Shown here piece after piece: positions 5,924-61,647 of a stretch of DNA of 64,000 nt; within the stretch, counting starts at the first letter, position 1; each line of letters begins with the position of its first letter. The notes beneath the pieces are model-generated. The model was given only the letters and a program-made list of their open reading frames with translations, was not told the origin of the DNA and did not search any database. The stretch spans positions 2,144,001 to 2,208,000 of the forward strand of contig CAWGHO010000002.1 of NCBI GenBank assembly GCA_963822445.1, read 5' to 3'. The stretch comes from an uncultured Acidobacteriota bacterium (GTDB taxonomy: Bacteria > Acidobacteriota > Thermoanaerobaculia > Gp7-AA8). The position numbers were made by a program, and so were the translations under genes.

Positions 5924-6117
5924 CTACTGCCAGGAGCTGTCGGCGGGCCGTTCGCCGCGCCCGGCGCTGAAGCGCCTCGTTCAGCGTGGACTGGCCGGCG
6001 GCACGCCGGCCGACATGCTCTCGCGCCGCTCGTCGCGGCGCGAACACTGCAGCCGTCGCGCCGCGTGACCCGCTCGCATGCGGGGCCTCGCCGCAGCTCA
6101 GGCGATAGACGTTAGGC
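5918..6117 (+). repeat. attC site 6
   Basis: GGCTAAC...GTTAGGC. Confidence 0.9.
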
Positions 6118-6189
6118 CGTCCTGTCCACAACGCTACGCGTCCTTCGGGCTTTCGGATGATCTCTATCATTGACGCGATCTGCGCGTAT

Positions 6190-6520
6190 CCCCCTCGCAG
6201 TTGACGACATCGCAAGCTTGCGGGCCGCGAGCAGCAAGACGCGCCTCCCGCATGCCCAGGTGTGCAGGCGGTCCTTCACACCCGCCCGCCACGCGCGGTA
6301 GACCGCCTGCACACCTGGGCATCACAACCGCCCGGCGCACGCTCGTCGCGGCCCTGATTTCACGCGCCGCCCACCCTCGCGCGTCGAACTCACGAATGCG
6401 TCCGTGTCACGGCGGTTGCACGTCGCTCCCGCCGATCGGTCGTTAGTCGCGGCAACCGCCGCGCCACGGTGGGGAGCGTGAATTCGACGCACTTCCACCC
6501 CGGTTGCGCTGCTCCCACCC
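6190..6520. repeat. Structured cassette-leader element, copy 1
   Basis: Conserved in 7 cassettes; perfect 22-bp stem 6252-6273/6301-6322 around a conserved loop. Confidence 0.85.
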
Positions 6521-6611
6521 CGCTCAATCGTTAGCCCGACCAAGAAGAATATGCGAGACGTGTCCCTCCAACCCATAGCACGGGCACCGAAGAGATGCGG
6601 AGGAAAAAGCA

Positions 6612-6896
6612 ATGCCATACACAGCAAAGCAACTTGCGAAGGAAGTGGCAAGCGATCCAGCGCTTGCTGCGAGGATCCAGCAGAACCCGGCGCAGGAAAT
6701 CGCAAATGCGGCAACGCCGCCGCCGCTGAGCGAAGCGACATACAAGATCGTCGTCATCATCCTTGGGCTGGCACTGCTCATCGCGCTTGGCGCTGCCATC
6801 TACCTGAAAGGCGATGTGTCCGATTTCATCGTCGCGGTAGGCTCCGGCGCACTGGGAGCACTCGCCGGCCTTCTGGCTCCGTCGCCAACACAGTAG
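6612..6896 (+). CDS. Small two-TM membrane protein
   Basis: GGAGG RBS; two hydrophobic helices. Confidence 0.75.
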   Translation: MPYTAKQLAKEVASDPALAARIQQNPAQEIANAATPPPLSEATYKIVVIILGLALLIALGAAIYLKGDVSDFIVAVGSGALGALAGLLAPSPTQ

Positions 6897-6968
6897 GGCG
6901 GTACCAGCGCTCCAGACGCGTCGTCGGGGTCGTTGATCTACTCCGGTGGCGTGCTACCGTGCGTAAGT

Positions 6969-7277
6969 GTGAGTCGCAAGAGCCTCAGTCTGCTCGCTCT
7001 CCTTCTTCTTACCACCTGCGCTACAACGCCCGATTTGAAGAGTCGCATGGACGCGCTGATCGGGAGAAACATTTCAGACGTCATAGCGGAACGCAAGGTG
7101 TACCCCGACTCGTCAGACGTGCTGCCGAATGGCAACACCGTTTACCGGTTCGCGTCCGGCTCCGGGGGAACGGTTGATCGGTACGGCAACGTCACATCAA
7201 ACGTTTGTAGGGTCTGGTTAGAGTCGAGGCCCGACGGAATTATCGTGAGGTACCGGTACGAGAATTGCCGAGATTAA
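6969..7277 (+). CDS. Putative lipoprotein
   Basis: 'SRKSLSLLALLLLTTC' signal with Cys; TGcTACCGT upstream. Confidence 0.65.
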   Translation: MSRKSLSLLALLLLTTCATTPDLKSRMDALIGRNISDVIAERKVYPDSSDVLPNGNTVYRFASGSGGTVDRYGNVTSNVCRVWLESRPDGIIVRYRYENCRD

Positions 7278-10933: not shown

Positions 10934-11130
10934 GCCTAACTACTGCCAGAAGCTGGCACGGCCCGGCTTCGGTCCGGCGGCCGAGCCGCCTATATCGTCG
11001 TAGTTTGGGCGGCGTCACGCTGGTTGCAATTCGCCAGTCGCGGCTGCGCAACTCCTCGGCGGCAACCGGCGCGCCGCTCTCCGTCTCCACGTGGGCCCTG
11101 GCCGTGCAGCTTAGGCGATAGACGTTGGGC
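10934..11130 (+). repeat. attC site 10
   Basis: GCCTAAC...GTTGGGC. Confidence 0.9.
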
Positions 11131-11421
11131 GGACTCGGCACGAAGAGGTAGGCCCGACTTCCATTTACGCGTTGGCAGTCGCACCGACCGAAGCGGCGGA
11201 GCCGCGCGCCAAGGCGTCCGCCACAATTGTTCGTCGTGGTACCCGCCCATCCGCCGGCTCGTCCCACGTGCAGCGCGCGCGAAACACATTCTTTCGTAGG
11301 CCGGTCGCAATCGCCGCGATTGCCGCGATCCCCGCCGGCCTGTCGGCCGAGCACGCATTCCGCGTCCGTCACCATTCGGCGCGCGCGCTGCTCCCAAGTG
11401 CGCAAAGTTATGCGTGTGGCC
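11131..11421. repeat. Gene-less cassette family, copy 1 (candidate ncRNA or structured DNA)
   Basis: ~290 bp, 10 related copies, no reading frame conserved across copies; appears identical to 38145-38435. Confidence 0.85.
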
Positions 11422-11611
11422 GCCCAACAACTCACAGCAGCTGTCGCGGCCCGGCTTCGGCTCGGCGGCCGAGCCGCCTAGGCCGAACAGTACCGGCGCG
11501 GCGTCACGCCGGCTGCAGTTCGGTTCATTCGTTAATCGCCGGCAGCCGGCGCGCCGCGCTGCCGTAGCCACGCGGGCCCTGGCCGCGCAGCTGAGTGAGA
11601 TGACGTTGGGC
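11422..11611 (+). repeat. attC site 11 (subtype of gene-less cassettes)
   Basis: GCCCAACAACTCACAGCAGCTG...CAGCTGAGTGAGATGACGTTGGGC. Confidence 0.9.
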
Positions 11612-12484: not shown

Positions 12485-12681
12485 GCCCAACTACTGCCAG
12501 GAGCTGTCGGCGGGCTGGCTTCGTGGCCCGTCGGCCGAGCCGACTCGGCAGACTCCAAGTCGCGCGGCGTCACGGCCGTTGCAGTTCGCTCCTGCCGGTA
12601 AGCGTTGGTCGCGGCAACGGCCGCGCCGCTCTGCTGCTTGCGCCGGTGAACCCGCCGCAGCTCAGGCGATAGACGTTAGCC
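12485..12681 (+). repeat. attC site 12
   Basis: GCCCAAC...GTTAGCC. Confidence 0.9.
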
Positions 12682-13787: not shown

Positions 13788-13902
13788 CGACGTACTCACA
13801 TTAGGGTGGCGGCGAGCTCTCTATGAAGCTCCGCAGTTGTGCGTCGCGCGTCGAAATTGTCGGCAATCCGTCCGTGGCATCGTCGTGCTTCGCGGCACGA
13901 TT

Positions 13903-14240
13903 CCCCCTCGCAGCTGACATCGCCTCAAGAGTGCGGGCCGCGAACAGCAAAACGCGCCACCCGCATGCGCAAGCGTTCAGTCGGTCCCTTCACGCCCTCC
14001 CACCACCCGCGGTAGACCGACTGAACGCTTGCGCATCACGCCCACCCGGCGCACGCTCATCGCGGCCCTGGCATCGACGCCCCTCCCGCCGACGCGCGTC
14101 GAACTCACGGATGCGCGCCGTGACACGGCGGTCGCAGATCGCTCCAGCCGACGGGTCGTTCGTCGCGGCAACCGCCGCGCCCCGGGCAGGGGAGCGTGAA
14201 TTCGACGCGCTCACACCCGTACCGACGCCGCTCCCGCCCC
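13903..14240. repeat. Structured cassette-leader element, copy 2
   Basis: Perfect 22-bp stem 13965-13986/14015-14036. Confidence 0.85.
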
Positions 14241-18098: not shown

Positions 18099-18297
18099 GC
18101 CCAACTACTGCCAGGAGCTGTCGGCGGGCCGTTTGCCGCGCCCGGCGCTGAAGCGCCTCGGCCGGTGTCGATTGGCCGGCGGCACGCCGGCCGACATGCT
18201 CTCGCGCCGCTGATCGCGGCGCGAACACTGCAGCCGTCGCGCCGCGCAACCGCACGCGCGTGGGGCCTCGCCGCAGCTCAGGCGATAGACGTTGGGC
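18099..18297 (+). repeat. attC site 16
   Basis: GCCCAAC...GTTGGGC. Confidence 0.9.
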
Positions 18298-18589
18298 GGA
18301 CTCGGCACTGCATCAGCGTAGGACGGACATCCATTTACGCGTTGGCAGTCGCACCGGCCGAAGCGGCAGAGCCGCGCGCCAAGGCGTCCGGCACAATTTT
18401 AGTCGTGGTACCCACCCTTCCCGCCGGCTTGTCGCACGTGCAGCGCGCGCGGACGCACGATTCGCGTAGCGAGTGACTACAGTAACTCAAGACGCAGCGG
18501 CAAAGCGGGCCTTCGGCCACGCGCGCTCCGCGCCATGCACCATTCGGCGCGCGCGCTGCTTCCAAGCGCGCAAAGTCATGCGTGTGGCC
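18298..18589. repeat. Gene-less cassette family, copy 2
   Basis: Homologous to 11131-11421; subtype B interior. Confidence 0.85.
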
Positions 18590-18778
18590 GCCCAACAACT
18601 CACAGCAGCTGTCGCGGCCCGGCTTCGGCCCGGCGCTGAAGCGCCTGGGCCGAACAGTACCGGCGCGGCGGCACGCCGGCCGCAATTCGGTTCATTCGTT
18701 AATCGCCGGCAGCCGGCGCGCCGCGCTGCCGTAACCACGTGGGCCCTGCCCGCGCAGCTGAGTGAGATGACGTTAGCC
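18590..18778 (+). repeat. attC site 17 (gene-less subtype)
   Basis: GCCCAAC...GTTAGCC. Confidence 0.9.
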
Positions 18779-19654: not shown

Positions 19655-19847
19655 CTACTGCCAGGAGCTGTCGGCGGGCCGTTTGCCGCGCCCGGCGCTG
19701 AAGCGCCTCGTTCAGCGCCGATTGGCCGGCGGCACGCCGGCCGACATGCTCTCGCGCCGCTGGCCGCGGCGCGGACACTGCAGCCGTCGCGCCGCGCCCC
19801 CGCTCGCACGTGGGGCCTCGCCGCAGCTCAGGCGATAGACGTTAGGC
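19649..19847 (+). repeat. attC site 18
   Basis: GGCTAAC...GTTAGGC. Confidence 0.9.
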
Positions 19848-19919
19848 GGTCGTCTGCACGAACGCTCCGCGTCCATGTAGATTTTTACTACGAGGACTCG
19901 TCCTTCAATCGGCACGCTT

Positions 19920-20260
19920 CCTCCGCGCAGCTGAATCCATCGCCAGGTTGCGGGGCCGCGACCAGCAAAGCGCGCCTGCCCGCACGCGCAGTTGTGCTCC
20001 ATTCGGCCCCTTCACACCCGCCCGCCACCCGCGGTAGGCCGAATGGAGCACAACTGCGCTTCACACCCACCCGGCGCATGCTCGTCGCGGCCCTGACGGA
20101 GCGCACCACCCGCCCGCGCGCGACGAACTCCTGAGTGCATCGGTGTCACCGCGGTTGCAGGTCCGCTCCCGCCGACCTGTCGGTGGTCGCGGCAACCGCG
20201 GCGCCACCGATGCGCTCAGGAATTCGCCGCGCTTACAGCCGGCGACCGCTGCTCCCGCCC
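19920..20260. repeat. Structured cassette-leader element, copy 3
   Basis: Perfect 23-bp stem 19986-20008/20037-20059. Confidence 0.85.
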
Positions 20261-20442
20261 GTGTCTTTTGGGGCGGCGCTTACATGCGAATCCCATTTTC
20301 GGCCGCTGTCGCTAGGCGGACGAAGGAACATCCGGTCACAGCGCTTCTACCAGATATCGAACATGCAGCTCAGCGCGGTGTAGACTTACCGACGTGCGTA
20401 CCGTCAAGATCGAGACATTACGCGCAAGGCGGAGAACATAGC

Positions 20443-21390
20443 GTGTCTCCAAAACTATCATTCTTCATCAGTTACGCACACGCCGACCGATCACTTGCGG
20501 TAGCTATTGCCGATGAACTTGAGCGTGCTGGTATGCGCGTGTGGGTCGATGAAGGCGAGTTGCGCGCTGGGGATTCGATCGTAGAGCGCATCGCCGATGC
20601 TGTCGACCAGGTAGACTTTGTCGTAGCGCTCGTCACGCGACGCGCTGTAGCCTCGAATTGGTGCAAGAAGGAATTGGCGCTCGCGATACAGGGAGGCTTG
20701 CGCGAGGGCAGCGTCCGATTGTTGCCATTGCGGGTTGACGACGTTGAGATGCCTCCGTCGTTACGTGATCTTTTCCACCTTCATGTCGATTCTCGGAACC
20801 CTATGCCCGTCGTACGTAAGCTCGTCGCCGACGCGTGGTCGCATTTTCGTGAACAGCAGTTGGATTCATGCTTTCTCGGCAGAGTTGTGTCAGTTTTACA
20901 ACCGACAACAACTCTCAGCGCCGAGCGACAGCAAGCACTAAAGCTTGCTCTGCGTAGCAATGACGACGACTACAACTCGGCCGCGCGCGCTGAAAAATTG
21001 CTAGCGAAGGATCTAAGTGTGCCAGCCGCTGAAATTCTTTACGAAGATGCATTGGATGACGCATTAACCGATCGTAACGCTGGCTTCGGCGTATCGGGGC
21101 TCGCAAGGCTTGGTCCGCTGGCCGCGCCGTGGCTGTATCAAATGCTGAGCCATGACGATGATCGTGTCGTCCGTGACGCTTTTGACGCTCTCGCGCATAC
21201 ACGTTCGATAATTTTCTCCGATATGCGGGAATACCTGCTGGATACCATCGATGCTATTGTTAAACACGCGGATTGGTCCGCCTGCGCAAAGAGATTGAAA
21301 GAGTCGTGCAGTGACGAAGATAGAACGGACAGGCTAGCGTTCATGCTGGGCTACGCAAGCGACTACCGCAGGAACTTTGCCAAAGGCTAA
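20443..21390 (+). CDS. TIR domain protein with helical (HEAT-like) C-terminus
   Basis: GGAG RBS, GTG start; 'FFISYAHAD...VWVDE...GDSI...SNWCKKEL'. Confidence 0.85.
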   Translation: MSPKLSFFISYAHADRSLAVAIADELERAGMRVWVDEGELRAGDSIVERIADAVDQVDFVVALVTRRAVASNWCKKELALAIQGGLREGSVRLLPLRVDDVEMPPSLRDLFHLHVDSRNPMPVVRKLVADAWSHFREQQLDSCFLGRVVSVLQPTTTLSAERQQALKLALRSNDDDYNSAARAEKLLAKDLSVPAAEILYEDALDDALTDRNAGFGVSGLARLGPLAAPWLYQMLSHDDDRVVRDAFDALAHTRSIIFSDMREYLLDTIDAIVKHADWSACAKRLKESCSDEDRTDRLAFMLGYASDYRRNFAKG

Positions 21391-21459
21391 TGGTTGTCGT
21401 GTCGCTGCGTCACAGCCAGAGACCAAGGGTGCAGGGTTACGCAACCGCCGGGACTCGCC

Positions 21460-21655
21460 GCCTAACTACTGCCCGAAGCTGTCACGGCCCGGCTTCGGTC
21501 CGGCGGCCGAGCCGCCTACTTCAGCGCCAGCTTCACGGCGTCACGCCGGTTGCAGATCGGCAGGCGTTGCATCAACTTCTCGCCGGCAACCGCCGTGCCG
21601 CTGGGGCTTCGGCACGTGGGCCCTGGCCGTGCAGCTTAGGCGATGGACGTTAGCC
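21460..21655 (+). repeat. attC site 19
   Basis: GCCTAAC...GTTAGCC. Confidence 0.9.
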
Positions 21656-22587: not shown

Positions 22588-22777
22588 CTACTGCCAGCAG
22601 CGGACGGCGGGCCGTTCGTTGGCCCGGCGGCCGAGCCGCCTCCAGCACTCAAAGCCGCACGGCGTCACGCCGCCTGCAGCTCGCGCCCGCCGAGAGCTCG
22701 TTAGTTGCGGCAAGCGGCGCGCCGCTTCCTGCTAGGCACTCGGGGCCTCGCCGCCGCTGAGGCGATAGACGTTGGGC
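22582..22777 (+). repeat. attC site 20
   Basis: GGCTAAC...GTTGGGC, L boxes CAGCGG/CCGCTG. Confidence 0.9.
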
Positions 22778-23067
22778 GGACTCCGCACGAAGACGTAGGC
22801 CCGACTTCTATTTTCGCGCTGGCAGTCGCACCGACTGAAGCGGCAGAGCCGCGCGCCAAGGCGTCCGCCACAATTGTCCGTCGTGGCTCCCGCCCGTCCA
22901 CCGGCTTGTCGCGCCTGCAGCGCGCGCGAAGCTGATTTTTCGTGGGTTTGTCGCAATCTCCGCGAAAGTCACCATCCAAGCCGGCCTGTCGGCCGAGCAC
23001 GCATTCCGCGTCCATCACCATTCGGCGCGCGCGCTGCTCCCAAGCGCAGAAGCTTATGCGTGTGGCC
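22778..23067. repeat. Gene-less cassette family, copy 3
   Basis: Homologous to copy 1. Confidence 0.85.
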
Positions 23068-23257
23068 GCCCAACAACTCACAGCAGCTGTCGCGGCCCGG
23101 CTTCGGCCCGGCGGCCTAGCCGCCTAGGCCGAACAGTACCGGCGCGGCGTCACGCCGGCTGCAGTTCGGTTCGTTCGCTAATCGCCGGCAGCCGGCGCGC
23201 CGCCCTGCCGTAGCCACGCGGGCCCTGGCCGCGCAGCTGAGTGAGATGACGTTGGGC
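23068..23257 (+). repeat. attC site 21 (gene-less subtype)
   Basis: GCCCAAC...GTTGGGC. Confidence 0.9.
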
Positions 23258-24786: not shown

Positions 24787-24884
24787 CGACAAACATGCCT
24801 TAGCGTTGATGCGCGCAATCTATGAAGCTCTGCGCACTTGCACGTCGAGTCCTTCTTCGCATGGTCGTTCCTTCGCGGCACGTT

Positions 24885-25219
24885 CCCCCTCGCAGCTGAC
24901 CGTGTCGCGAGAAGGCGGGCCGCGACCAGCAAAACGCGCCTCCCGCATGCGCAAGCGTTCAGCTGGTCCCTTCACACCCGCCCACCACCCGCGGTAGACC
25001 GGCTGAACGCTTGCGCATCACAACCACCCGGCGCACGCTCGTCGCGGCCCTGACTTCGCGCAACACCCTCCCTCGCGCGTGGAACTCACGAATGCGTGCG
25101 TGACACGGCGGTTGCACATCGCTCATGCCGGAGGTCACCTTCGTCGCGGCAACCGCCGCGCCACGGCAGAGGAGCGTGAATTCGACGCGCTCCCACCCGT
25201 GCCGACGCTGCTCCCGCCC
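24885..25219. repeat. Structured cassette-leader element, copy 4
   Basis: 22-bp stem with one T-G pair. Confidence 0.85.
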
Positions 25220-28569: not shown

Positions 28570-28762
28570 CTACTGCCAGGAGCTGTCGGCGGGCCGTTCG
28601 CCGCGCCCGGCGCTGAAGCGCCTCGTTCAGCGCTGATTGGCCGGCGGCACGCCGGCCGACACGCTCTCGCGCCGCTGGTCGCGGCGCGAACACGGCAGCC
28701 GTCGCGCCGCGCAACCGCACGCACGCGGGGCCTCGCCGCAGCTCAGGCGATAGACGTTGGGC
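28564..28762 (+). repeat. attC site 25
   Basis: GGCTAAC...GTTGGGC. Confidence 0.9.
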
Positions 28763-29051
28763 GGACCCGGCACGAAGAGGTAGGCCCGACTTCCATTTAC
28801 GCGTTGGCAATCGCACCGACTGAAGCGGCGGAGCCGCGCGCCAAGGCGTCCGCCACCATTTTTCGTCGTGGTACCCGCCCGCCCGCCGGCTTGTCGCACT
28901 TGCAGCGCGCGCGGAGCAGCGATTTGCGTAGGCCGGTGCCCACAAAACTCGAGACGCAACGACGTAGCGGGCCTTCGGCCACGCGCGCTCCGCGTCGTGC
29001 ACTATTCGGCGCGCGCGCTGCTCCCAAGCGCGCAAAGTTGTGCGTCTGGCC
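28763..29051. repeat. Gene-less cassette family, copy 4
   Basis: Subtype B interior. Confidence 0.85.
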
Positions 29052-29240
29052 GCCCAACAACTCACAGCAGCTGACGCGGCCCGGCTTCGGCCCGGCGCTG
29101 AAGCGCCTTGGCCGAACAGTACCGGCGCGGCGGCACGCCGGCCGCAAATCGGTTCATTCGTTAATCGCCGGCAGCCGGCGCGCCGCGCTGCCATAGCCGC
29201 GCGGGCCCTGGCCGCGCAGCTGAGTGAGATGACGTTAGGC
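29052..29240 (+). repeat. attC site 26 (gene-less subtype)
   Basis: GCCCAAC...GTTAGGC. Confidence 0.9.
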
Positions 29241-33490: not shown

Positions 33491-33679
33491 GCCGAACTAC
33501 TGCCAGAAGCTGGCAGCGGGCCGTTTGCCGCGCCCGCCGGCCGAGCCGGCTCGGTCGATCGAAGACGCACGGCGTCACGCCGCGTGCATCCGCGTCAAAC
33601 GGCAGTCGGCAGCACGCGGCGTGCCGCATCGCCGCACGCACGTGGGGCCTCGCTGCAGCTTAGGCGATAGACGTTGGGC
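33491..33679 (+). repeat. attC site 30
   Basis: GCCGAAC...GTTGGGC. Confidence 0.9.
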
Positions 33680-33970
33680 GGACCCGGCACGAAGACGTAG
33701 GCCCGACTTCCATTTTCGCGCTGGCAGTCGCACCGACTGAAGCGGCAGAGCCGCGCGCCAAGGCGTCCGCCACAATCGTTCGTCGTGGTACCCGCCCGGC
33801 CGCCGGCTTGTCGCAAGTGCAGCGCGCGAAACATGGTTCTCGTCGGCAGCCGGCCACAATCGCCTCAAGAGCCAAAATCCACGCCGGCCTGTCGGCCGAG
33901 CACGCGTTCCGCGTCCCTCACCATTGGGCGCGCGCGCTGCTCCCAAGCGCGCAAAGTTTTGCGTGTGGCC
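33680..33970. repeat. Gene-less cassette family, copy 5
   Basis: Homologous to copy 1. Confidence 0.85.
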
Positions 33971-34160
33971 GCCCAACAACTCACAGCAGCTGTCGCGGCC
34001 CGGCTTCGGCCCGGCGGCCGAGCCGCCTGGGCCGAACAGTACCGGCGCGGCGTCACGCCGGCTGCAGATCGGTTCGTTCGTTAATCGCCGGCAGCCGGCG
34101 TGCCGCGCTGCAGTAGCCACGCGGGCCCTGGCCGCGCAACTGAGTGAGATGACGTTGGGC
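33971..34160 (+). repeat. attC site 31 (gene-less subtype)
   Basis: GCCCAAC...GTTGGGC. Confidence 0.9.
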
Positions 34161-34452
34161 GGACTCGGCACGAATAGGTAGGCCGGACTTCTATTACGCG
34201 TTGGCAGACGCACCGACTGAAGCGGCGGAGCCGCGCGCCAAGGCGTCCGCCACAATCGTTCGTCGTGGCTCCCGCCCGTCCGCCGGCTCGTCGCACGTGC
34301 AGCGCGCGCGAAGCATGATTCTCGTAGGCAGCCGGCCATAATCTCCGCGAGATCCAAGATCCGAGCCGGCCTTGCGGCCGAGCACGCGTTCCGCGTCCGC
34401 CATCATTCGGCGCGCGCGCTGCTCCCAAGCCCGGAAGGTCATGCGTGTGGCC
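34161..34452. repeat. Gene-less cassette family, copy 6
   Basis: Tandem with copy 5 but not identical. Confidence 0.85.
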
Positions 34453-34642
34453 GCCCAACAACTCACAGCAGCTGTCGCGGCCCGGCTTCGGCCCGGCGCT
34501 GAAGCGCCTAGGCCGAACAGTACCGGCGCGGCGGCACGCCGGGCCGCAAATCGGTTCATTCGTTAATCGCCGGCAGCCGGCGCGCCGCGCTGCCGTAGCC
34601 GCGTGGGCCCTGGCCGCGCAGCTGAGTGAGATGACGTTAGGC
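34453..34642 (+). repeat. attC site 32 (gene-less subtype)
   Basis: GCCCAAC...GTTAGGC. Confidence 0.9.
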
Positions 34643-36989: not shown

Positions 36990-37183
36990 CTACTGCCAGG
37001 AGCTGTCGGCGGGCCGTTTGCCGCGCCCGGCGCTGAAGCGCCTCGTTCAGCGTCGAATGGCCGGCGGCACGCCGGCCGACATGCTCTCGCGCCGCTGATC
37101 GCGGCGCGACTCACTGCAGCCGTCGCGCCGCGCCGCCGCACGCACGTGGGGCCTCGCCGCAGCTCAGGCGATAGACGTTGGGC
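36984..37183 (+). repeat. attC site 34
   Basis: GCCTAAC...GTTGGGC. Confidence 0.9.
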
Positions 37184-37477
37184 GGACTCGGCACGAAGAA
37201 GGTAGGCCCGACTTCCATTTACGCGTTGACAGTCGCACCGACCGAAGCGGCGGAGCCGCACGCCAAGGCGTCGGCCACAATTTTTCGTCGTGGCACCCGC
37301 CCGCCCGCCGGCTTGTCGCACGTGCAGCGCGCGCGAAGCATGATTTTCGTCGCCAGCCGGCCACAACATCCTCGAGACGCATCAGCGAGGCCGGCCTGTC
37401 GGCCGAGCACGCATTCCGCGTCCGGCACCATTTGGCGCGCGCGCTGCTCCCAAGCGCGCAAGGTTATGGGTGTGGCC
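37184..37477. repeat. Gene-less cassette family, copy 7
   Basis: First of three tandem copies. Confidence 0.85.
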
Positions 37478-37666
37478 GCCCAACAACTCACAGCAGCTGT
37501 CGCGGCCCGGCTTCGTCCCGGCGCTGAAGCGCCTGGGCCGAACAGTACCGGCGCGGCGGCACGCCGGCCGCAATTCGGTTCATTCGTTAATCGCCGGCGG
37601 CCGGCGCGCCGCGCTGCCGCAGCCACGCGGGCCCCGGCCGCGCAGCTGAGTGAGATGACGTTGGGC
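37478..37666 (+). repeat. attC site 35 (gene-less subtype)
   Basis: GCCCAAC...GTTGGGC. Confidence 0.9.
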
Positions 37667-37954
37667 GGACCCGGCACGAAGACGTAGGCCCGACTTCTAT
37701 TTTCGCGTTGGCAATCGCACCGACTGAAGCGGCGGAGCCGCGCGCCAAGGCGTCCGCCCCAATTCTGGTCGTGGCACCCGCCCGTCCGCCGGCTTGTCGC
37801 ACGTGCAGCGCGCGCGAGGCGTGGTTTTGCGTAGGCCGGTGACCACAAACCTCGAGACGCAGCGACGAAGCGGGCCTTCGGCCACGCGCGCTCCGCGTCA
37901 TGCACGATCGGGCGCGCGCGCTGCTCCCAAGCGCGGAAAGTTATGCGTGTGGCC
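37667..37954. repeat. Gene-less cassette family, copy 8
   Basis: Subtype B interior. Confidence 0.85.
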
Positions 37955-38144
37955 GCCCAACAACTCACAGCAGCTGACGCGGCCCGGCTTCGGCCCGGCG
38001 GCCGAGCCGCCTAGGCCGAACAGTACCGGCGCGGCGGCACGCCGGCCGCAAATCGGTTCATTCGTTAATCGCCGGCAGCCGGCGCGCCGCGCTGCCGCAG
38101 TCGCGTGGGCCTTGGCCGCGCAGCTGAGTGAGATGACGTTGGGC
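37955..38144 (+). repeat. attC site 36 (gene-less subtype)
   Basis: GCCCAAC...GTTGGGC. Confidence 0.9.
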
Positions 38145-38435
38145 GGACTCGGCACGAAGAGGTAGGCCCGACTTCCATTTACGCGTTGGCAGTCGCACCG
38201 ACCGAAGCGGCGGAGCCGCGCGCCAAGGCGTCCGCCACAATTGTTCGTCGTGGTACCCGCCCATCCGCCGGCTCGTCCCACGTGCAGCGCGCGCGAAACA
38301 CATTCTTTCGTAGGCCGGTCGCAATCGCCGCGATTGCCGCGATCCCCGCCGGCCTGTCGGCCGAGCACGCATTCCGCGTCCGTCACCATTCGGCGCGCGC
38401 GCTGCTCCCAAGTGCGCAAAGTTATGCGTGTGGCC
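38145..38435. repeat. Gene-less cassette family, copy 9
   Basis: Appears identical to 11131-11421. Confidence 0.85.
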
Positions 38436-38625
38436 GCCCAACAACTCACAGCAGCTGTCGCGGCCCGGCTTCGGCTCGGCGGCCGAGCCGCCTAGGCCGA
38501 ACAGTACCGGCGCGGCGTCACGCCGGCTGCAGTTCGGTTCATTCGTTAATCGCCGGCAGCCGGCGCGCCGCGCTGCCGTAGCCACGCGGGCCCTGGCCGC
38601 GCAGCTGAGTGAGATGACGTTAGGC
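38436..38625 (+). repeat. attC site 37 (gene-less subtype)
   Basis: GCCCAAC...GTTAGGC. Confidence 0.9.
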
Positions 38626-42742: not shown

Positions 42743-42934
42743 CTACTGCCAGGAGCTGTCGCGGCCCGGCTTCGGTCCGCCGGCCGAGCCGGCTGCTTTT
42801 TCGCCAGCGTGACGGCGTCACGGCGTTGCAGTTCGCCACTCGCTGCATGGGCAGTTCATTGGCGGCAACTGCCGCGCCGCTCCGGCTTCGGCACGTGGGC
42901 CCTGGCCGCGCAGCTCAGGCGATAGACGTTGGGC
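42737..42934 (+). repeat. attC site 40
   Basis: GCCTAAC...GTTGGGC. Confidence 0.9.
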
Positions 42935-43226
42935 GGACTCGGCACGAAGAGTAGGCCGGACTTCCATTGACGCGTTGGCAGTCGCACCGACTGAAGCGGC
43001 AGAGCCGCGCGCCAAGGCGTCCGCCACAATTGTTCGTCGTGGTTCCCGCCCATCCGCCGGCTTGTTGCACGTGCAGCGCACGCGAAACATGATTTTCGTC
43101 GGCAGCCGGCCACAATCTCCGCGAGAGCCACCCTCCACGCCGGCCTGGCGGCCGAGCACGCATTCCGCGTCCGCCACGATTCGGCGCGTGCGCTGCTCCC
43201 AAGCGCGGAAAGCTATGCGTGTGGCC
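42935..43226. repeat. Gene-less cassette family, copy 10
   Basis: Compensatory change GCAGCGCACGC/GCGTGCGCTGC in the clamp stem. Confidence 0.85.
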
Positions 43227-43415
43227 GCCCAACAACTCACAGCAGCTGACGCGGCCCGGCTTCGTCCCGGCGCTGAAGCGCCTGGGCCGAACAGTACCGG
43301 CGCGGCGGCACGCCGGCCGCAGATCGGTTCATTCGTTAATCGCCGGCGGCCGGCGCGCCGCGCTGCCGCAGCCACGCGGGCCCTGGCCGCGCAGCTGAGT
43401 GAGATGACGTTAGCC
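43227..43415 (+). repeat. attC site 41 (gene-less subtype)
   Basis: GCCCAAC...GTTAGCC. Confidence 0.9.
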
Positions 43416-44509: not shown

Positions 44510-44682
44510 AGACCGGCGGACGCGGAGCGCAACCGACGCACAAGTTCGCGGAACGCAACCACAGCGCGCGTGGCATGATCGATCGCAACTGCTCACTATC
44601 GTTGCGCTCCACCAGTCCACCGGCATGGCTAACTTTCATCATTCCGTCGTCGCGACGTCCGGTCGATCCCATAATAGACATT

Positions 44683-45007
44683 CCCCCTGCAGCTGACAGC
44701 ATCGCAAGATTGCGGGCCGCGACCAGCCAAAGTGCGCCCGCCCCCCGCGCCGTTGTGCAGTAGACCCCTTCACACCCGCTCCACCACCCGCGGTAGGCCT
44801 ACTGCACAACGGCGCACCCTCCCGGGCGCCAGCTCGTCGCGGCCCTGAATGTGCGCATCCACCCGACCTCGCGCGTCGAACTCACGAATTGATCCGTGTC
44901 ACGCGGTTGCAGATGGCTTCCTCCGGCGAATCATCAGTCGCCGCAACCGCGTGCCACGGGAAGACCGTGAATTCGACGCGCTCACACCCGGGAGATCGCT
45001 GCCCCCC
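44683..45007. repeat. Structured cassette-leader element, copy 5
   Basis: 20-bp stem with one mismatch around the conserved loop. Confidence 0.8.
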
Positions 45008-45097
45008 GACCCGCGAGAGCGACACGTCGTGATCAGGCCCGATGTGTCGGCGTGATCTAGATGCTCCAGGTTGTAAACCACCAGTTTCGGTATGAAC

Positions 45098-45421
45098 TTA
45101 GACATTCGCGGGGCGCAAAACCACCAGTTCGGTCACTCCGGAAGTGACCTTTGCCAATTCGGAAGTGACCTTTGCCACTTCGGAAGTGACCTTTGCCACT
45201 TCGGAAGTGACCCTTGCCACTTCGGAAGTGACTTGGGCCACTTCGGAAGTGACCTTTGCCAATTCGGAAGTGACTTGGGCCACTTCGGAAGTGACCTTTG
45301 CCACTTCGGAAGTGACCTTGGCCACTTCGGAAGTGACCACGGCCACTTCGCTAGTGACCTTGGCCACTTCGGAAGTGACCTTGCATTCAACTCTGAGACC
45401 GACGACGGACATGCCGCGCAT
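45098..45421 (-). CDS. Heptad-repeat (VTSEVAK)n coiled-coil peptide
   Basis: Repeat variation is mostly synonymous or conservative in this frame (TCC>AGC Ser, GCA/GCC Ala). Confidence 0.55.
   Translation of the reverse strand: MRGMSVVGLRVECKVTSEVAKVTSEVAVVTSEVAKVTSEVAKVTSEVAQVTSELAKVTSEVAQVTSEVARVTSEVAKVTSEVAKVTSELAKVTSGVTELVVLRPANV
45137..45385. repeat. Tandem repeat, 12 x 21 bp (TTCGGAAGTGACCTTTGCCAC)
   Basis: Units start every 21 nt from 45137 to 45368. Confidence 0.95.
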
Positions 45422-45430
45422 TGAATGGCT

Positions 45431-55202: not shown

Positions 55203-55274
55203 CGTCCTGGCCACAGCGCTTCGCGTCCTTGTCACCTTCTCGTCGAATTTCGCGTCTATCAATCTGTTCGCCTT

Positions 55275-55602
55275 CCCCCTCGCAGCTGACAGCATCCCGA
55301 GGTTGCGGGCCGCGACCAGCAAAACGCGCTTCCCGCATGCCCAAATGTGCCGTCGGTCCCTTCTCGCACACCGCCCGCGGTAGACCGACGGCACACTTGG
55401 CCATCACACCCGCCCGGCGCACGCTCATCGCGGCCCTGACAGCACGCACCGCCGCCCTCGCGCGCCGAACTCACGAATGCATCCGTGTCACGGCGGTTGC
55501 GGTCTCTCCAATGACTTACTCCTCGGTCGCGGGCAACCGCCGCGCCACGGGCCAGAGCGTAAATTCGGCGCGCTCACACCCCGCTTGCGCTGCTCCCATC
55601 CC
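55275..55602. repeat. Structured cassette-leader element, copy 6
   Basis: 22-bp stem with two mismatches. Confidence 0.8.
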
Positions 55603-57558: not shown

Positions 57559-57748
57559 GCCTAACTACTGCCAGAAGCTGGCAGCGGGCCGTTTGCCGCG
57601 CCCGGCGGCCGAGCCGCCTACCGGGTCCCAAGGTGCACAGCGTCACGCCGCTTGCAGATCTCGTCGTTCGTGAATCGCGGCAAGCGGCGTGCCGCTCTGC
57701 CCGCACGCGCGGGGCGCCTCGCTGCAGCTTAGGCGATAGACGTTAGGC
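57559..57748 (+). repeat. attC site 53
   Basis: GCCTAAC...GTTAGGC. Confidence 0.9.
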
Positions 57749-57820
57749 GGTCGTCTGCACGAACGCTCCGCGTCCATGTAGATTTTTACTACGAGGACTC
57801 GTCCTTCAATCGGCACGCTT

Positions 57821-58152
57821 CCTCCGCGCAGCTGAATCCATCGCCAGGTTGCGGGGCCGCGACCAGCCTGCCCGCACGCGCAGTTGTGCTCCATTCGGCC
57901 CCTTCACACCCGCCCGCCACCCGCGGTAGGCCGAATGGAGCACAACTGCGCTTCACACCCACCCGGCGCATGCTCGTCGCAGCCCTGACGGAGCGCACCA
58001 CCCGCCCGCACGCGACGAACTCCTGAGTGCATCGGTGTCACCGCGGTTGCAGGTCCGCTCCCGCCGACCTGTCGGTGGTCGCGGCAACCGCGGCGCCACC
58101 GATGCGCTCAGGAATTCGCCGCGCTTACAGCCGGCGACCGCTGCTCCCGCCC
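57821..58152. repeat. Structured cassette-leader element, copy 7 (duplicate of copy 3 with a 9-bp deletion)
   Basis: Near-identical to 19920-20260. Confidence 0.85.
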
Positions 58153-58334
58153 GTGTCTTTTGGGGCGGCGCTTACATGCGAATCCCATTTTCGGCCGCTG
58201 TCGCTAGGCGGACGAAGGAACATCCGGTCACAGCGCTTCTACCAGATATCGAACATGCAGCTCAGCGCGGTGTAGACTTACCGACGTGCGTACCGTCAAG
58301 ATCGAGACATTACGCGCAAGGCGGAGAACATAGC

Positions 58335-59282
58335 GTGTCTCCAAAACTATCATTCTTCATCAGTTACGCACACGCCGACCGATCACTTGCGGTAGCTATT
58401 GCCGATGAACTTGAGCGTGCTGGTATGCGCGTGTGGGTCGATGAAGGCGAGTTGCGCGCTGGGGATTCGATCGTAGAGCGCATCGCCGATGCTGTCGACC
58501 AGGTAGACTTTGTCGTAGCGCTCGTCACGCGACGCGCTGTAGCCTCGAATTGGTGCAAGAAGGAATTGGCGCTCGCGATACAGGGAGGCTTGCGCGAGGG
58601 CAGCGTCCGATTGTTGCCATTGCGGGTTGACGACGTTGAGATGCCTCCGTCGTTACGTGATCTTTTCCACCTTCATGTCGATTCTCGGAACCCTATGCCC
58701 GTCGTACGTAAGCTCGTCGCCGACGCGTGGTCGCATTTTCGTGAACAGCAGTTGGATTCATGCTTTCTCGGCAGAGTTGTGTCAGTTTTACAACCGACAA
58801 CAACTCTCAGCGCCGAGCGACAGCAAGCACTAAAGCTTGCTCTGCGTAGCAATGACGACGACTACAACTCGGCCGCGCGCGCTGAAAAATTGCTAGCGAA
58901 GGATCTAAGTGTGCCAGCCGCTGAAATTCTTTACGAAGATGCATTGGATGACGCATTAACCGATCGTAACGCTGGCTTCGGCGTATCGGGGCTCGCAAGG
59001 CTTGGTCCGCTGGCCGCGCCGTGGCTGTATCAAATGCTGAGCCATGACGATGATCGTGTCGTCCGTGACGCTTTTGACGCTCTCGCGCATACACGTTCGA
59101 TAATTTTCTCCGATATGCGGGAATACCTGCTGGATACCATCGATGCTATTGTTAAACACGCGGATTGGTCCGCCTGCGCAAAGAGATTGAAAGAGTCGTG
59201 CAGTGACGAAGATAGAACGGACAGGCTAGCGTTCATGCTGGGCTACGCAAGCGACTACCGCAGGAACTTTGCCAAAGGCTAA
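58335..59282 (+). CDS. TIR domain protein, duplicate of 20443-21390
   Basis: Identical translation in the ORF track. Confidence 0.88.
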   Translation: MSPKLSFFISYAHADRSLAVAIADELERAGMRVWVDEGELRAGDSIVERIADAVDQVDFVVALVTRRAVASNWCKKELALAIQGGLREGSVRLLPLRVDDVEMPPSLRDLFHLHVDSRNPMPVVRKLVADAWSHFREQQLDSCFLGRVVSVLQPTTTLSAERQQALKLALRSNDDDYNSAARAEKLLAKDLSVPAAEILYEDALDDALTDRNAGFGVSGLARLGPLAAPWLYQMLSHDDDRVVRDAFDALAHTRSIIFSDMREYLLDTIDAIVKHADWSACAKRLKESCSDEDRTDRLAFMLGYASDYRRNFAKG

Positions 59283-59353
59283 TGGTTGTCGTGTCGCTGC
59301 GTCACAGCCAGAGACCAAGGGTGCAGGGTTACGCAACCGCCGGGACTCGCCGC

Positions 59354-60289
59354 CTAACTGTTGCGTCTCAGGACGTTGTTCCGATCCAGGCGACTGATGG
59401 GTGGATTGTAAGAGAGCGCGGTATGCGCTCGGTGGTAGTTGTAGAAGTGAAGGTACGGTGCGAGCCAACGGCGCCGTTCCTCGGAGCTGTGGTACGAGAA
59501 CCGATAGGCCCATTCGCGCAGCAGCGTCTGGATGAACCGCTCCGCTTTACCGTTCGTCCGTGGTGTGTACGGCCGGATGCGGACGTGAGTGAGGTTCAGG
59601 CGGCTGCAGGTATCCCGGAAGTCGCGTGAGATGAAGGCCGATCCGTTGTCGGTCATCACCCGCTCGACGATGACATTCCGCTGAGCGAACCACGCCACCG
59701 CCCGAGTCAAAAACGAGCTGGCAGTCTCGCTACGCTCATCTGCCAGGACGTCGACGTAGGAGAGTCGGGTGAAGTCATCCGTCGCGACGTACACGAACTC
59801 GAAGCCCTGCTTCTTTGAGCCAAACGATCGACGCCTGGTGATGCGGTGTCCCACTCGATTGAACCGTCCCAGGCGCTTGATGTCGATGTGCACCAGTTCC
59901 CCCGGACGCTCCTTCTCGTACCGAATTGGCACTGTTGCCGGCTCAAGCTGACGCAACCGAGCCAGCCCTGCTGACCGGCAGATCCGCGCTGCTGTCGACG
60001 CACTCACGCCCACTGCCTGCGCGATCTGTCGCACAGTCCGCCATTCGCGGCGAAGACTCAGAACACGCTGTCGTTTTATGTCGCTCGTGGCCCGGCCCCT
60101 GTGCGGTCTGGAGCTCCGATCGTTAAGCGGCTCGACCCTCAGACCACGACGGATCCACTCCCGCCCTCGCCGGTCACTCATACCGGCGGCCTCCGACGCC
60201 TCGCGCACCGACCATCCTTGTTCGCAGACTCGTTTGACCAGCAGTGCTCGACTCAACGGGCAGCTTCGCGCATTCTTGTGCACGTCCAT
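59354..60289 (-). CDS. IS481 family transposase
   Basis: 'PGELVHIDIKRLG...DDFTR...TDNG...PRTNGKAERFIQT' DDE motif. Confidence 0.95.
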   Translation of the reverse strand: MDVHKNARSCPLSRALLVKRVCEQGWSVREASEAAGMSDRRGREWIRRGLRVEPLNDRSSRPHRGRATSDIKRQRVLSLRREWRTVRQIAQAVGVSASTAARICRSAGLARLRQLEPATVPIRYEKERPGELVHIDIKRLGRFNRVGHRITRRRSFGSKKQGFEFVYVATDDFTRLSYVDVLADERSETASSFLTRAVAWFAQRNVIVERVMTDNGSAFISRDFRDTCSRLNLTHVRIRPYTPRTNGKAERFIQTLLREWAYRFSYHSSEERRRWLAPYLHFYNYHRAHTALSYNPPISRLDRNNVLRRNS

Positions 60290-60392
60290 CTGGGTTCCTT
60301 CCTGTCAACCTGTTCGTTTGAGAGCTTTCAGATTGACGAAAGTCGCCCGGATGGACAACCCGCTTCAAGGAACAACGTCCTGACACATCACA
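59359..60392 (-). mobile_element. IS481-family insertion sequence inserted in an attC R'' box
   Basis: TGT...ACA ends, imperfect 24-bp terminal IRs (..TCAGGACGTTGTTCC), 6-bp TSD CCTAAC at 59353-59358 and 60393-60398; empty site at 21460. Confidence 0.95.
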
Positions 60393-60587
60393 CCTAACTA
60401 CTGCCCGAAGCTGTCACGGCCCGGCTTCGGTCCGGCGGCCGAGCCGCCTACTTCAGCGCCAGCTTCACGGCGTCACGCCGGTTGCAGATCGGCAGGCGTT
60501 GCATCAACTTCTCGCCGGCAACCGCCGTGCCGCTGGGGCTTCGGCACGTGGGCCCTGGCCGTGCAGCTTAGGCGATGGACGTTAGGC
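60392..60587 (+). repeat. attC site 54 (regenerated after IS481 insertion)
   Basis: ACCTAAC...GTTAGGC; body matches attC 19. Confidence 0.88.
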
Positions 60588-60713: not shown

Positions 60714-61454
60714 ATGCAAACAGCCATCACGGTAGCGCTCATATCTGCCGCCGTCGCTTTATCCTCGGCGGCGTTCGCGTTTTGGGGCCAGGTGAGGTTG
60801 AAGAGACTTTCGTCCGACATCGACGGTCTTCAGGAGCGCGAACGCGAGCGGCGCGACGCCGCGAAGGTGGCCCGCAAGTACCATGAGCCGCTTGCTCGGT
60901 CCGCCTACGATTTCCAAAGCCGCCTGTACAATCTGCTCGGCAAAGATTTTGCCGGTCGTTACCTTGACCGAGGTAACGAGCGCGAGCGCGACTATGCGGT
61001 CTACAACACGGTGTTCTTGATCGCGCAATACTTCGCGTGGACGGAGATCATTCGCATTGCTATTCAGTACGTTGATCTGGGCAGTGACGATCAGACTAGA
61101 CAGTTCGCGCGTCTTCAAGACAAGATCTTCGCGCTTTTCACGACGGACCGATTTCCCTCAGCGTTTCGCGTCTTTGCCGGCGAGCAGCGCGCCCTCGGAG
61201 AGTGGATGATTCGACAGACCGATTTAGGCCCCGAATGTGTCGGTTACGGCACGTTTGTCGAGCGGATGCGGTCAAACGAGGGCACCGACCCGATAGCGAG
61301 GTATCTTGCCGACGACGTGAAACAGTTCGCAAGTGATACGGCGGGTCGGCGGCTCGCGGAAATTCAGAACGCCCTGATCGATCTGCTGGATTTCTTAGAT
61401 CCTGCTTGCGTGCGCTTCGACAAAATGAATAGAACGAAGATCCCGGCGGCCTAA
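60714..61454 (+). CDS. Hypothetical protein with N-terminal TM
   Basis: GAGG RBS; 246 aa; stop in GCCTAAC. Confidence 0.8.
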   Translation: MQTAITVALISAAVALSSAAFAFWGQVRLKRLSSDIDGLQERERERRDAAKVARKYHEPLARSAYDFQSRLYNLLGKDFAGRYLDRGNERERDYAVYNTVFLIAQYFAWTEIIRIAIQYVDLGSDDQTRQFARLQDKIFALFTTDRFPSAFRVFAGEQRALGEWMIRQTDLGPECVGYGTFVERMRSNEGTDPIARYLADDVKQFASDTAGRRLAEIQNALIDLLDFLDPACVRFDKMNRTKIPAA

Positions 61455-61647
61455 CGTCTGTCGCCTGAGCTGCGGCGGGTTCACCGACGCAAACGGCAGA
61501 GCGGCGCGGCCGTTGCCGCGACCAACGCCTTTTCAGGCAGGAGCGACCTGCAACGGACGTGACGCCGCGCAGGTTGGAGTCGGCCGAGTCGGCTCGGCCG
61601 ACGGGCCACGAAGACAGCCCGCCGACAGCTCCTGGCAGTAGTTAGGG
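61449..61647 (-). repeat. attC site 55, inverted relative to all others
   Basis: Reverse complement reads CTAACTACTGCCAGGAGCTG...CAGCTCAGGCGACAGACGTTAGGC, same subtype as attC 12/15/52. Confidence 0.9.

Follow-up and report, generated by a model that had tools for sequence, protein, structure and literature searches.

Large chromosomal integrons carry many gene-less cassettes of unexplained purpose. The closest described cases are the non-coding cassettes of Vibrio chromosomal integrons, which are present in multiple copies, are kept among related species only and have been read either as selfish or as useful to the integron (Boucher et al. 2006, PMC1382264); the same paper infers that they are subject to gene conversion or purifying selection. 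Cassettes without an open reading frame (ORF) can have promoter activity (Tansirichaiya et al. 2019, PMC6557892), and such promoter cassettes are reviewed, together with the cassette-encoded sRNA-Xcc1 of Xanthomonas and with fused gene cassettes, in PMC8876359. In fused cassettes, the internal attC recombination site has been lost or truncated, and two cassettes move together (PMC8876359, section 2.4.4). The DUF1874 motif, a multi-stem motif found in consecutive intergenic regions, is suspected to be an unusual attC site that folds as single-stranded DNA (PMC5737381). Here we describe a protein-free module of ~330 to 340 nucleotides (nt) with two long hairpins, which occurs in eight copies in the integron array of an uncultured soil acidobacterium (genome G000). 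Seven of these copies lie in the 64,000-nt stretch analyzed here (contig CAWGHO010000002.1, positions 2,144,001 to 2,208,000; hereafter the window). The element is real and conserved and is of a broadly known kind, that of the non-coding integron cassettes. We propose, with moderate confidence, that it belongs to a family of paralogous integron cassettes that lack an ORF, that its core functions as folded DNA and that it has often become joined to the cassette behind it.

The window lies within the cassette array of a chromosomal integron of very large size; this array spans at least 92 kb (attC-type matches from C2:2126251 to past the eighth element copy at 2218403 in the search of genome G000). 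The integron integrase gene intI lies 26 kb upstream of the window (G000:C2:2118113-2119048; TIGR02249, 456 bits against a cut-off of 265) and is on the same strand as the cassette array. A scan with an attC profile of 198 positions, derived from 47 sites of this same array, found 54 full-length attC sites on the + strand of the window and one inverted site. At typically ~195 nt (185-201 nt in 47 of 51 extracted sites), these sites are unusually long.

A covariance model of domain 1 of the element matches exactly seven places in the window, all on the + strand (91-132 bits; best unrelated match, 17.6 bits), and they are the seven copies that the initial annotation had listed. The eighth copy, at G000:C2:2218094, is ~10 kb beyond the window end. 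Whole-genome searches with DNA and covariance models recovered full copies only at C2:2150185-2218403, within the array; outside it, only the 60-nt attC-type module matches. All eight genomic copies are on the + strand, in the orientation of the array. The element is therefore confined to integron cassettes in this genome, a point that had been raised when it was first noticed, and it does not show the dispersal of repeats of the REP (repetitive extragenic palindromic) or MITE (miniature inverted-repeat transposable element) type.

The core of the element consists, in 5′ to 3′ order, of a C-rich motif, domain 1, a C-rich linker, domain 2 (hairpin HP2, ~115 nt) and a second C-rich motif (Table 1). 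Domain 1 comprises an invariant outer stem of 9-10 base pairs (bp), a 5-bp middle helix and the long hairpin HP1. The 3′ C-rich motif can form a short closing helix of 4-5 bp with the 5′ end; this helix is invariant and thus yields no covariation signal. Likewise, 10 of 13 pairs of the outer stem never vary, so covariation is uninformative there. For the core of copy 1, the predicted folds are of unusual stability, with z scores of −5.4 (+ strand) and −6.6 (− strand). Homologues of the element fall into two subfamilies, one of them window-like, with a metagenome locus (L244) intermediate between them. In the window-like subfamily, a conserved HP1 loop of 27-28 nt is carried by a variable stem. 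In the second subfamily, it is the HP1 stem that is conserved; its loop, of ~30 nt, is highly variable, and the outer stem measures 16 bp. Among members of the second subfamily from L197 to L302, copies with near-identical flanks have apical HP1 loops of ~30 nt that are almost wholly different and form several groups.

Both hairpins show significant covariation. Among 24 distinct window-like copies, the HP1 stem has 21 different 5′ arms, each of which forms a helix of 17-23 bp with the 3′ arm of the same copy; mismatches are almost absent, and G-U pairs account for 4 of ~505. The mean duplex energy is −42.4 kcal/mol for cognate and −23.0 kcal/mol for non-cognate arms, with the copy's own arm being the best partner in 19 of 24 cases. 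In the 24-sequence alignment, 94.2% of the cells assigned to pairs are indeed paired (28.9-38.3% when the partners are slid), and changes on both sides of a pair (11 pairs and 43 cells) are as frequent in 1 of 500 and 0 of 500 shuffles. For HP2, 13 of 26 predicted pairs exhibit compensatory change across 33 sequences of both subfamilies, and the arm motif of domain 2 matches 11 times in the window (3.2 matches expected). These results bear out the original description of a structured, conserved, non-coding element. The long stem had also been called hypervariable but paired. The pairing holds, but the hypervariability was overstated: mean pairwise identity is 0.66-0.67 in the stem arms, 0.83-0.85 in the HP1 loop and 0.96-0.98 in the outer stem, and it is lower still in the leader upstream of the core. 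The first ~35 nt of that leader are kept in most window-like copies, and the remainder varies in sequence and length.

Two further details of the initial annotation survive in part. An A-C bias among the mismatches is found at a few conserved positions, one of them at the base of HP2, where 14 of the 18 copies with both arms read have C.A, two have A.C and one has a true pair. Elsewhere the bias disappears: mismatches in HP1 are rare and symmetric, and at the same place the top strand of the second subfamily shows G-T. Wobble-type evidence on which strand folds is contradictory, as the conserved mismatches favor the bottom strand in the window-like subfamily but the top strand in the second. 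Up to four GGG runs in the bottom-strand loop, the other detail, are present in a minority of copies (four C/G runs fit the quadruplex motif in 8 of 24 HP1 loops). We rejected a G-quadruplex or i-motif as a conserved feature of this loop, which lacks it altogether in the second subfamily.

The two strands of the element differ in composition. The top strand has 41% C and 28-31% G, in comparison with 37% and 35% in true attC sites of the array. In domain 1, folding of the bottom strand is more favorable by 9-19 kcal/mol, with more G-U pairs (224 versus 35), largely because of the G-rich loops on that strand. This strand asymmetry, and the resemblance of a conserved HP1 loop on a stem of free sequence to rolling-circle origin hairpins, could point to a folded-DNA site for machinery other than the integrase, such as an HUH-type origin or nick hairpin or a single-strand origin for copying an excised circle. 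We consider such a site very improbable. The element is not accompanied by a gene for a Rep protein, a relaxase or a Y1 transposase, and its cargoes are unrelated; the second subfamily is devoid of a conserved HP1 loop; and all genomic copies sit in the integron array. A retron, transposon or rolling-circle element was rejected as well, because the cargoes include no reverse transcriptase, Rep or dedicated transposase, and the sole transposase, of IS481 type, is an insertion in the cassette of copy 7.

No conserved coding frame runs through the element, as the alignments are rich in 1-2-nt indels and in paired stem changes. The ORFs that overlap it are of the chance type expected in high-GC sequence, and the single one tested has no Pfam match. 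A small bottom-strand ORF in the leader was discarded: its frames are inconsistent among window-like copies, and locus L239 has no minus-strand gene after the element. In agreement with the earlier statement that no known family could be recognized, Rfam 15 gives no match at gathering thresholds in the whole window. At a permissive threshold, two copies match only hairpin models of the microRNA-precursor type, at no more than 26 bits against cut-offs of 84-100, and the DUF1874 motif is not among these weak matches in the two regions scanned. Two copies were also scanned for a sigma-70-type promoter and an intrinsic terminator, and neither was found. We therefore rejected a promoter or terminator cassette, with the qualification that acidobacterial promoters may differ. 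Nor is there support here for the initially suggested roles as a promoter of excised circles, a single-strand origin or a signal for cassette assembly.

HP2 is visibly related to the recombination sites of the array. The attC profile matches HP2 in all six distinct window copies, on the same strand, with E values from 1e−9 to 2e−4. The attC-like part is the central 65-70 nt of HP2, corresponding to profile positions ~76-149 of 198, and the outer arms of HP2 are unmatched. Judged by this similarity, the HP2 core is homologous to the center of the array's own attC sites and has the same orientation. The array's attC sites (e.g., 12485-12680) have a common conserved central module of ~65 nt, which also matches three places outside the array, including on other contigs (G000:C3:1336199, C1:1230597 and C2:480990). 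HP2 is not the end of the cassette, given that conserved sequence continues for ~35 nt past it.

On its 5′ side, every copy of the element starts exactly at a cassette boundary. The seven window copies begin 78, 121, 78, 104, 179, 78 and 78 nt after the canonical attC crossover, which agrees with the 70 to 180 nt first reported, and all eight genomic copies begin 78-223 nt after a canonical attC core. In metagenomes, a canonical core is found at most 110 nt upstream in 23 of the 31 copies listed. The second half of that first description, a leader ahead of unrelated cargo, does not stand in general, because at least four of the eight genomic copies end in a recognizable former junction 14-80 nt behind the element. 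We scored the 150 nt behind the 3′ motif with a matrix built from 54 canonical junctions (which themselves score at least 16.1). Six elements, namely copies 1, 2, 3 and 7 and those of loci L197 and L199, have a junction-like site 11-52 nt into this stretch; the scores are 9.5-17.0, and 0-2 of 200 shuffles scored as high. Canonical cores are present at both ends, 376-481 nt apart, in L295, L187 and L197, and a variant in genome G042 has a canonical core directly behind the 3′ motif. The junctions at both ends imply that the element in these copies is a self-contained gene-less cassette of ~380-490 nt and that the "cargo" is the next cassette. For copy 1, the GTTAGCC core (Table 1) is probably the true 3′ boundary, which would place the DUF3040-like ORF in the next cassette. 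The substitution of GCT for GTT in the junction of copies 3 and 7 would, from its sequence, inactivate that junction. Contigs of four soil or sediment runs from four studies, aligned at 85% likeness, extend over the element (6185-6526) and the attC sites and leave the cargo part (6584-7267) almost wholly uncovered. Low-confidence contig joints with intervening unknown letters link the end of HP2 to the next attC and are a hint at most. The public runs listed as containing this sequence include no RNA run.

Fusion of the element with its neighbor is best documented by copies 3 and 7. Their fused cassettes (19842-21467 and 57743-59359) are identical over ~1.6 kb, including a cargo that encodes a TIR-domain protein, except for three changes. 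The attC sites upstream of the two copies differ, and the identity beyond different attC sites indicates that element and cargo were moved or duplicated as one cassette. Separate cassette copies of the TIR cargo were not found in the 34 other genomes of the genus. The cassette that holds copy 7 (57743-60581) is 2.8 kb long because of the insertion of an IS481-family transposase gene (59354-60289, − strand). Across the array, the genes that follow the element are unrelated, encoding the TIR-domain protein, a protein with a weak DUF3040-like match, a zinc-ribbon protein and proteins of no family, and the element has at least six different downstream partners in this one genome. The gene behind copy 4 is oppositely oriented, an arrangement that speaks against a 5′ leader acting in cis. 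Copy 5 is followed by a tandem repeat (45092-45424) with a 21-nt period and more than 10 units, which fills a 110-amino-acid frame without a Pfam match.

Relatives of the element are present in other genomes and in soil metagenomes. Among 35 genomes of the genus, full domain 1 copies were also detected in three other species (G023, G045 and, with two copies, G024), and shortened or deleted forms in G042, G013 and G007. In a sample of 151 genomes of the class, matches are confined to the window's own family (five genomes, including G000). Among these are weak, degenerate matches in G006 and in G149, the latter from a second genus. A soil pattern scan yielded true homologues, as judged by profile search, in 31 of 120 metagenome loci among the matches listed, and in 12 listed loci neighboring attC modules are all oriented as the element. 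A loose pattern scan of a genome collection is uninformative on distribution, with 0 of 120 listed loci matching the element profile. In 5 of 11 leaders of the second subfamily (L197, L302, L288, L267 and L223), there is a short frame for a hydrophobic peptide of ~14-25 amino acids with a shared N-terminus, encoded antisense to the array; read in that direction, it comes immediately after the structured core. This frame is absent from the window's copies, and its product recalls type I toxins.

Copy 7 differs from copy 3 by a 9-nt deletion and two G-to-A changes, and both substitutions break stem pairs. All three differences fall within the 330-nt element out of ~1,626 aligned nt, for which simple arithmetic gives a chance of ~0.008. 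Such clustering fits structure-prone, mutable DNA. It would also be expected if the element were functionless neutral debris, that is, decayed attC-like hairpins left by the tandem duplication and fusion of tiny cassettes, in which pairing is kept only by hairpin-templated (quasi-palindrome) mutation and by gene conversion between copies. A direct repeat before both hairpins and similar tails after both, read by eye, suggest an internal duplication; the stems are near-perfect Watson-Crick helices; and deletion or truncation variants exist (G042, G013, G045, G024 and L269). Nevertheless, we find this explanation improbable. The core has been kept in many soil metagenomes and in two or more genera of the family, the two subfamilies hold the same architecture through many compensatory changes, and the unpaired 27-nt loop (identity 0.85) is better conserved than the stem (0.66), which templated correction cannot account for.

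Our preference for folded DNA follows from the attC kinship of HP2, from the almost purely Watson-Crick pairing of HP1, from the lack of promoter and terminator motifs in the two scanned copies and from the oppositely oriented cargo. RNA helices that evolve by compensation usually contain more wobble pairs. We suggest that the core functions in the form of folded single-stranded DNA, in which integron sites are also processed, and that the folded core would combine the attC-derived hairpin HP2 with HP1 as a second long, near-perfect Watson-Crick hairpin. The element may have spread by integrase-mediated cassette movement and duplication. Decay of a 3′ junction would weld it in front of the next cassette, with which it would then travel while mimicking a shared leader. 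The compensatory changes in the arms could stem from the upkeep of palindromic DNA, through selection for the hairpin or through correction that the hairpin templates, and would not necessarily reflect selection on RNA. The most economical reading would be that of a selfish or array-structural element, as has been proposed for the Vibrio non-coding cassettes.

Several observations weigh against the folded-DNA cassette. At the base of HP2, AAC is opposite ATT in 14 of the 18 copies read and opposite GTT in one, so that this base is not the 7-bp inverted core of an attC site; the fully complementary AAC/GTT pair is found in the G023 copy. The second subfamily is without an R-box-like HP2 base. 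A convincing 3′ junction is kept in only 6 of 31 copies scored. A search for an R″-type partner of the 3′ core in four cassettes found the best duplex of the last 32 nt to be no better than that of shuffled tails (85, 22, 10 and 63 of 200 shuffles do as well); no complete attC site of the element's own was thus found, only the central module. Some features are RNA-like, namely the conserved loops and junctions beside variable stems, the helix that closes ~330 nt and the strand asymmetry, which is not seen in the array's attC sites. The idea that the whole element is one giant attC site was rejected, since the 3′ core has no partner and whole-cassette DNA folds without a closing R box.

The same RNA-like features motivate the alternative of a structured non-coding RNA of ~330 nt, encoded on the top (cassette) strand and making up the content of a cassette. 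It could be a small or large RNA acting in trans, or a module of the array transcript that, for example, binds a protein or Rho through its C-rich single-stranded segments. Besides the multi-helix architecture with its terminal helix and the loop and junction sequences that are kept while stems vary with compensation, this alternative would explain the high variability of the HP1 terminal loop in the second subfamily, as RNA terminal loops are often variable, and the C-rich, G-poor unpaired segments of the top strand. Read-through transcription from upstream would spare the RNA a promoter of its own, and regulatory RNAs in cassettes are on record (sRNA-Xcc1, cited in PMC8876359). In our estimation, a structured RNA is possible but unlikely. 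Rfam holds no match, promoter and terminator motifs are missing from the two scanned copies, HP2 visibly descends from a recombination site of DNA, the gene behind one copy has the opposite orientation, and copy 7, a recent duplicate, is already gathering stem-breaking changes. Furthermore, a perfect helix of 20-23 bp that is nearly free of G-U pairs is unusual in bacterial RNA. A long perfect RNA helix of this size would be a substrate of RNase III. Weinberg et al. (2017, PMC5737381) noted that RNA and single-stranded DNA motifs are not reliably separable by sequence analysis alone, and we agree that this holds for the present element. Only tentatively, and as a rather doubtful possibility, we consider a functional mobile cassette with a regulatory or structural role, in which a structured RNA or a folded strand acts on neighboring cassettes or on recombination. 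With its attC-like hairpin, such a cassette could serve the integrase as a decoy or as a loading site, or it could silence or insulate downstream cassettes.

Table 1. Element copies, parts of copy 1 and a second cassette family, in window coordinates.
Feature	Position	Strand	Remarks
Copy 1, leader	6112..6189	+	begins at the crossover point of the preceding canonical attC
Copy 1, conserved core	6190..6516	+	5′ C-rich motif and GCAGT, domain 1, linker, domain 2, 3′ GCTGC and C-rich motif
Copy 1, domain 1	6222..6354	+	outer stem 6222-6230/6346-6354; 5-bp middle helix 6241-6245/6334-6338; HP1
Copy 1, HP1	6252..6322	+	perfect 22-bp stem 6252-6273/6301-6322; conserved C-rich loop of 27 nt, 6274-6300
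Copy 1, domain 2 (HP2)	6379..6492	+	long imperfect hairpin; R-box-like base with ATT where GTT is expected; conserved C.A mismatch
Copy 1, HP2 central module	6398..6470	+	homologous to attC profile positions 76-149 of 198, E 5e−8 (window scan)
GTTAGCC core behind copy 1	6530..6536	+	followed by the usual cassette-start motif; junction score 12.9, 1 of 200 shuffles as high
Copy 2, core	13901..14235	+	domain 1 outer stem 13935-14068; HP2 14094-14210; vestigial junction ~30 nt beyond
Copy 3, core	19918..20256	+	outer stem 19953-20093; HP2 20118-20232; junction-like motif with GCT for GTT ~60 nt beyond; TIR-domain cargo
Copy 4, core	24883..25215	+	outer stem 24917-25050; HP2 25075-25190; opposite-strand gene next; no junction motif found
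Copy 5, core	44681..45006	+	domain 1 outer stem 44714-44845; HP2 44871-44981
Copy 6, core	55273..55597	+	domain 1 outer stem 55307-55436; HP2 55460-55573
Copy 7, core	57819..58148	+	recent duplicate of copy 3; end coordinates inferred from the offset to copy 3
Second paralogous cassette family	11125-11605, 18292-18772, 22772-23251, 28757-29234, 33674-34154, 34155-34636, 37178-37660, 37661-38138, 38139-38619, 42929-43409

Two other features of the array were observed in the window. A second paralogous family consists of ten cassettes of ~480 bp, three of them in tandem, each with an attC subtype of its own (189-190 nt) and a content of only ~290 nt. A 131-amino-acid frame in this family (11172-11567) has no Pfam match, and the family may represent a small gene or another non-coding cassette. 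The inverted full-length attC site (61449-61646, − strand) directly follows the last + strand site of the window (60393-60587), and downstream of it, beyond the window end, matches to the element and to attC start again.

Within the gene-less cassettes of large integrons, this family is an unusually well-defined case: it has a 340-nt core, two hairpins supported by covariation, one of which is visibly derived from a recombination site, a wide occurrence in soils, natural deletion variants and a division into two subfamilies. These properties allow it to be taken straight into integrase binding assays, recombination assays and transcript mapping, and it offers a clean, testable example of what gene-less cassettes might do. 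Should an effect of the element on recombination or expression be borne out, integrons would have a new type of cargo other than genes. Its fused copies also matter for the annotation of integron arrays, because a non-coding cassette whose junction has decayed can pass for a leader that unrelated genes have in common.

The initial annotation had proposed an undescribed system, which is not upheld: the element is not free-standing, and multi-copy non-coding cassettes have already been described in Vibrio chromosomal integrons (PMC1382264). Our literature search found only general work on non-coding cassettes, in which neither this element nor a core of two hairpins derived from attC is described. 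Like the Vibrio cassettes, the element is ORF-less, has multiple copies in one array and is limited to related species. Unlike them, its host is a member of the Acidobacteriota, its 340-nt core contains two covariation-supported hairpins, and its 3′ site is non-canonical or decayed, mostly with fusion to the next cassette. The term "secondary structure" does not occur in the Vibrio paper (PMC1382264), and apparently no structure is described there. With the promoter cassettes and sRNA-Xcc1, the element shares a non-coding cassette content that possibly acts on neighbors or in trans; it differs from them in its much larger size, in the dominance of two hairpins, and in the lack of an Rfam match and, in two copies, of a sigma-70-like promoter. 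The DUF1874 motif is found between every gene as a candidate recombination site, whereas the element is present in 7 of ~54 window cassettes, beside normal attC sites.

The comparison is closest with the array's own ~195-nt attC sites (59-base elements) and with fused cassettes. In common with these attC sites, the element has the ~65-70-nt center of HP2 in the same orientation and a long imperfect hairpin whose helix is imperfect a few pairs above the base, and one relative has the AAC/GTT pairing. It departs from them in its crossover triplet, which is ATT in 14 of the 18 copies read, in outer arms unrelated to the canonical R and L arms, in its continuation for ~35 nt past HP2 and in its strand-asymmetric composition. 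Copies 3 and 7 behave as fused cassettes do. What sets the element apart from those fused cassettes is that it serves as a constant, non-coding upstream partner, joined to at least six downstream partners in a single genome.

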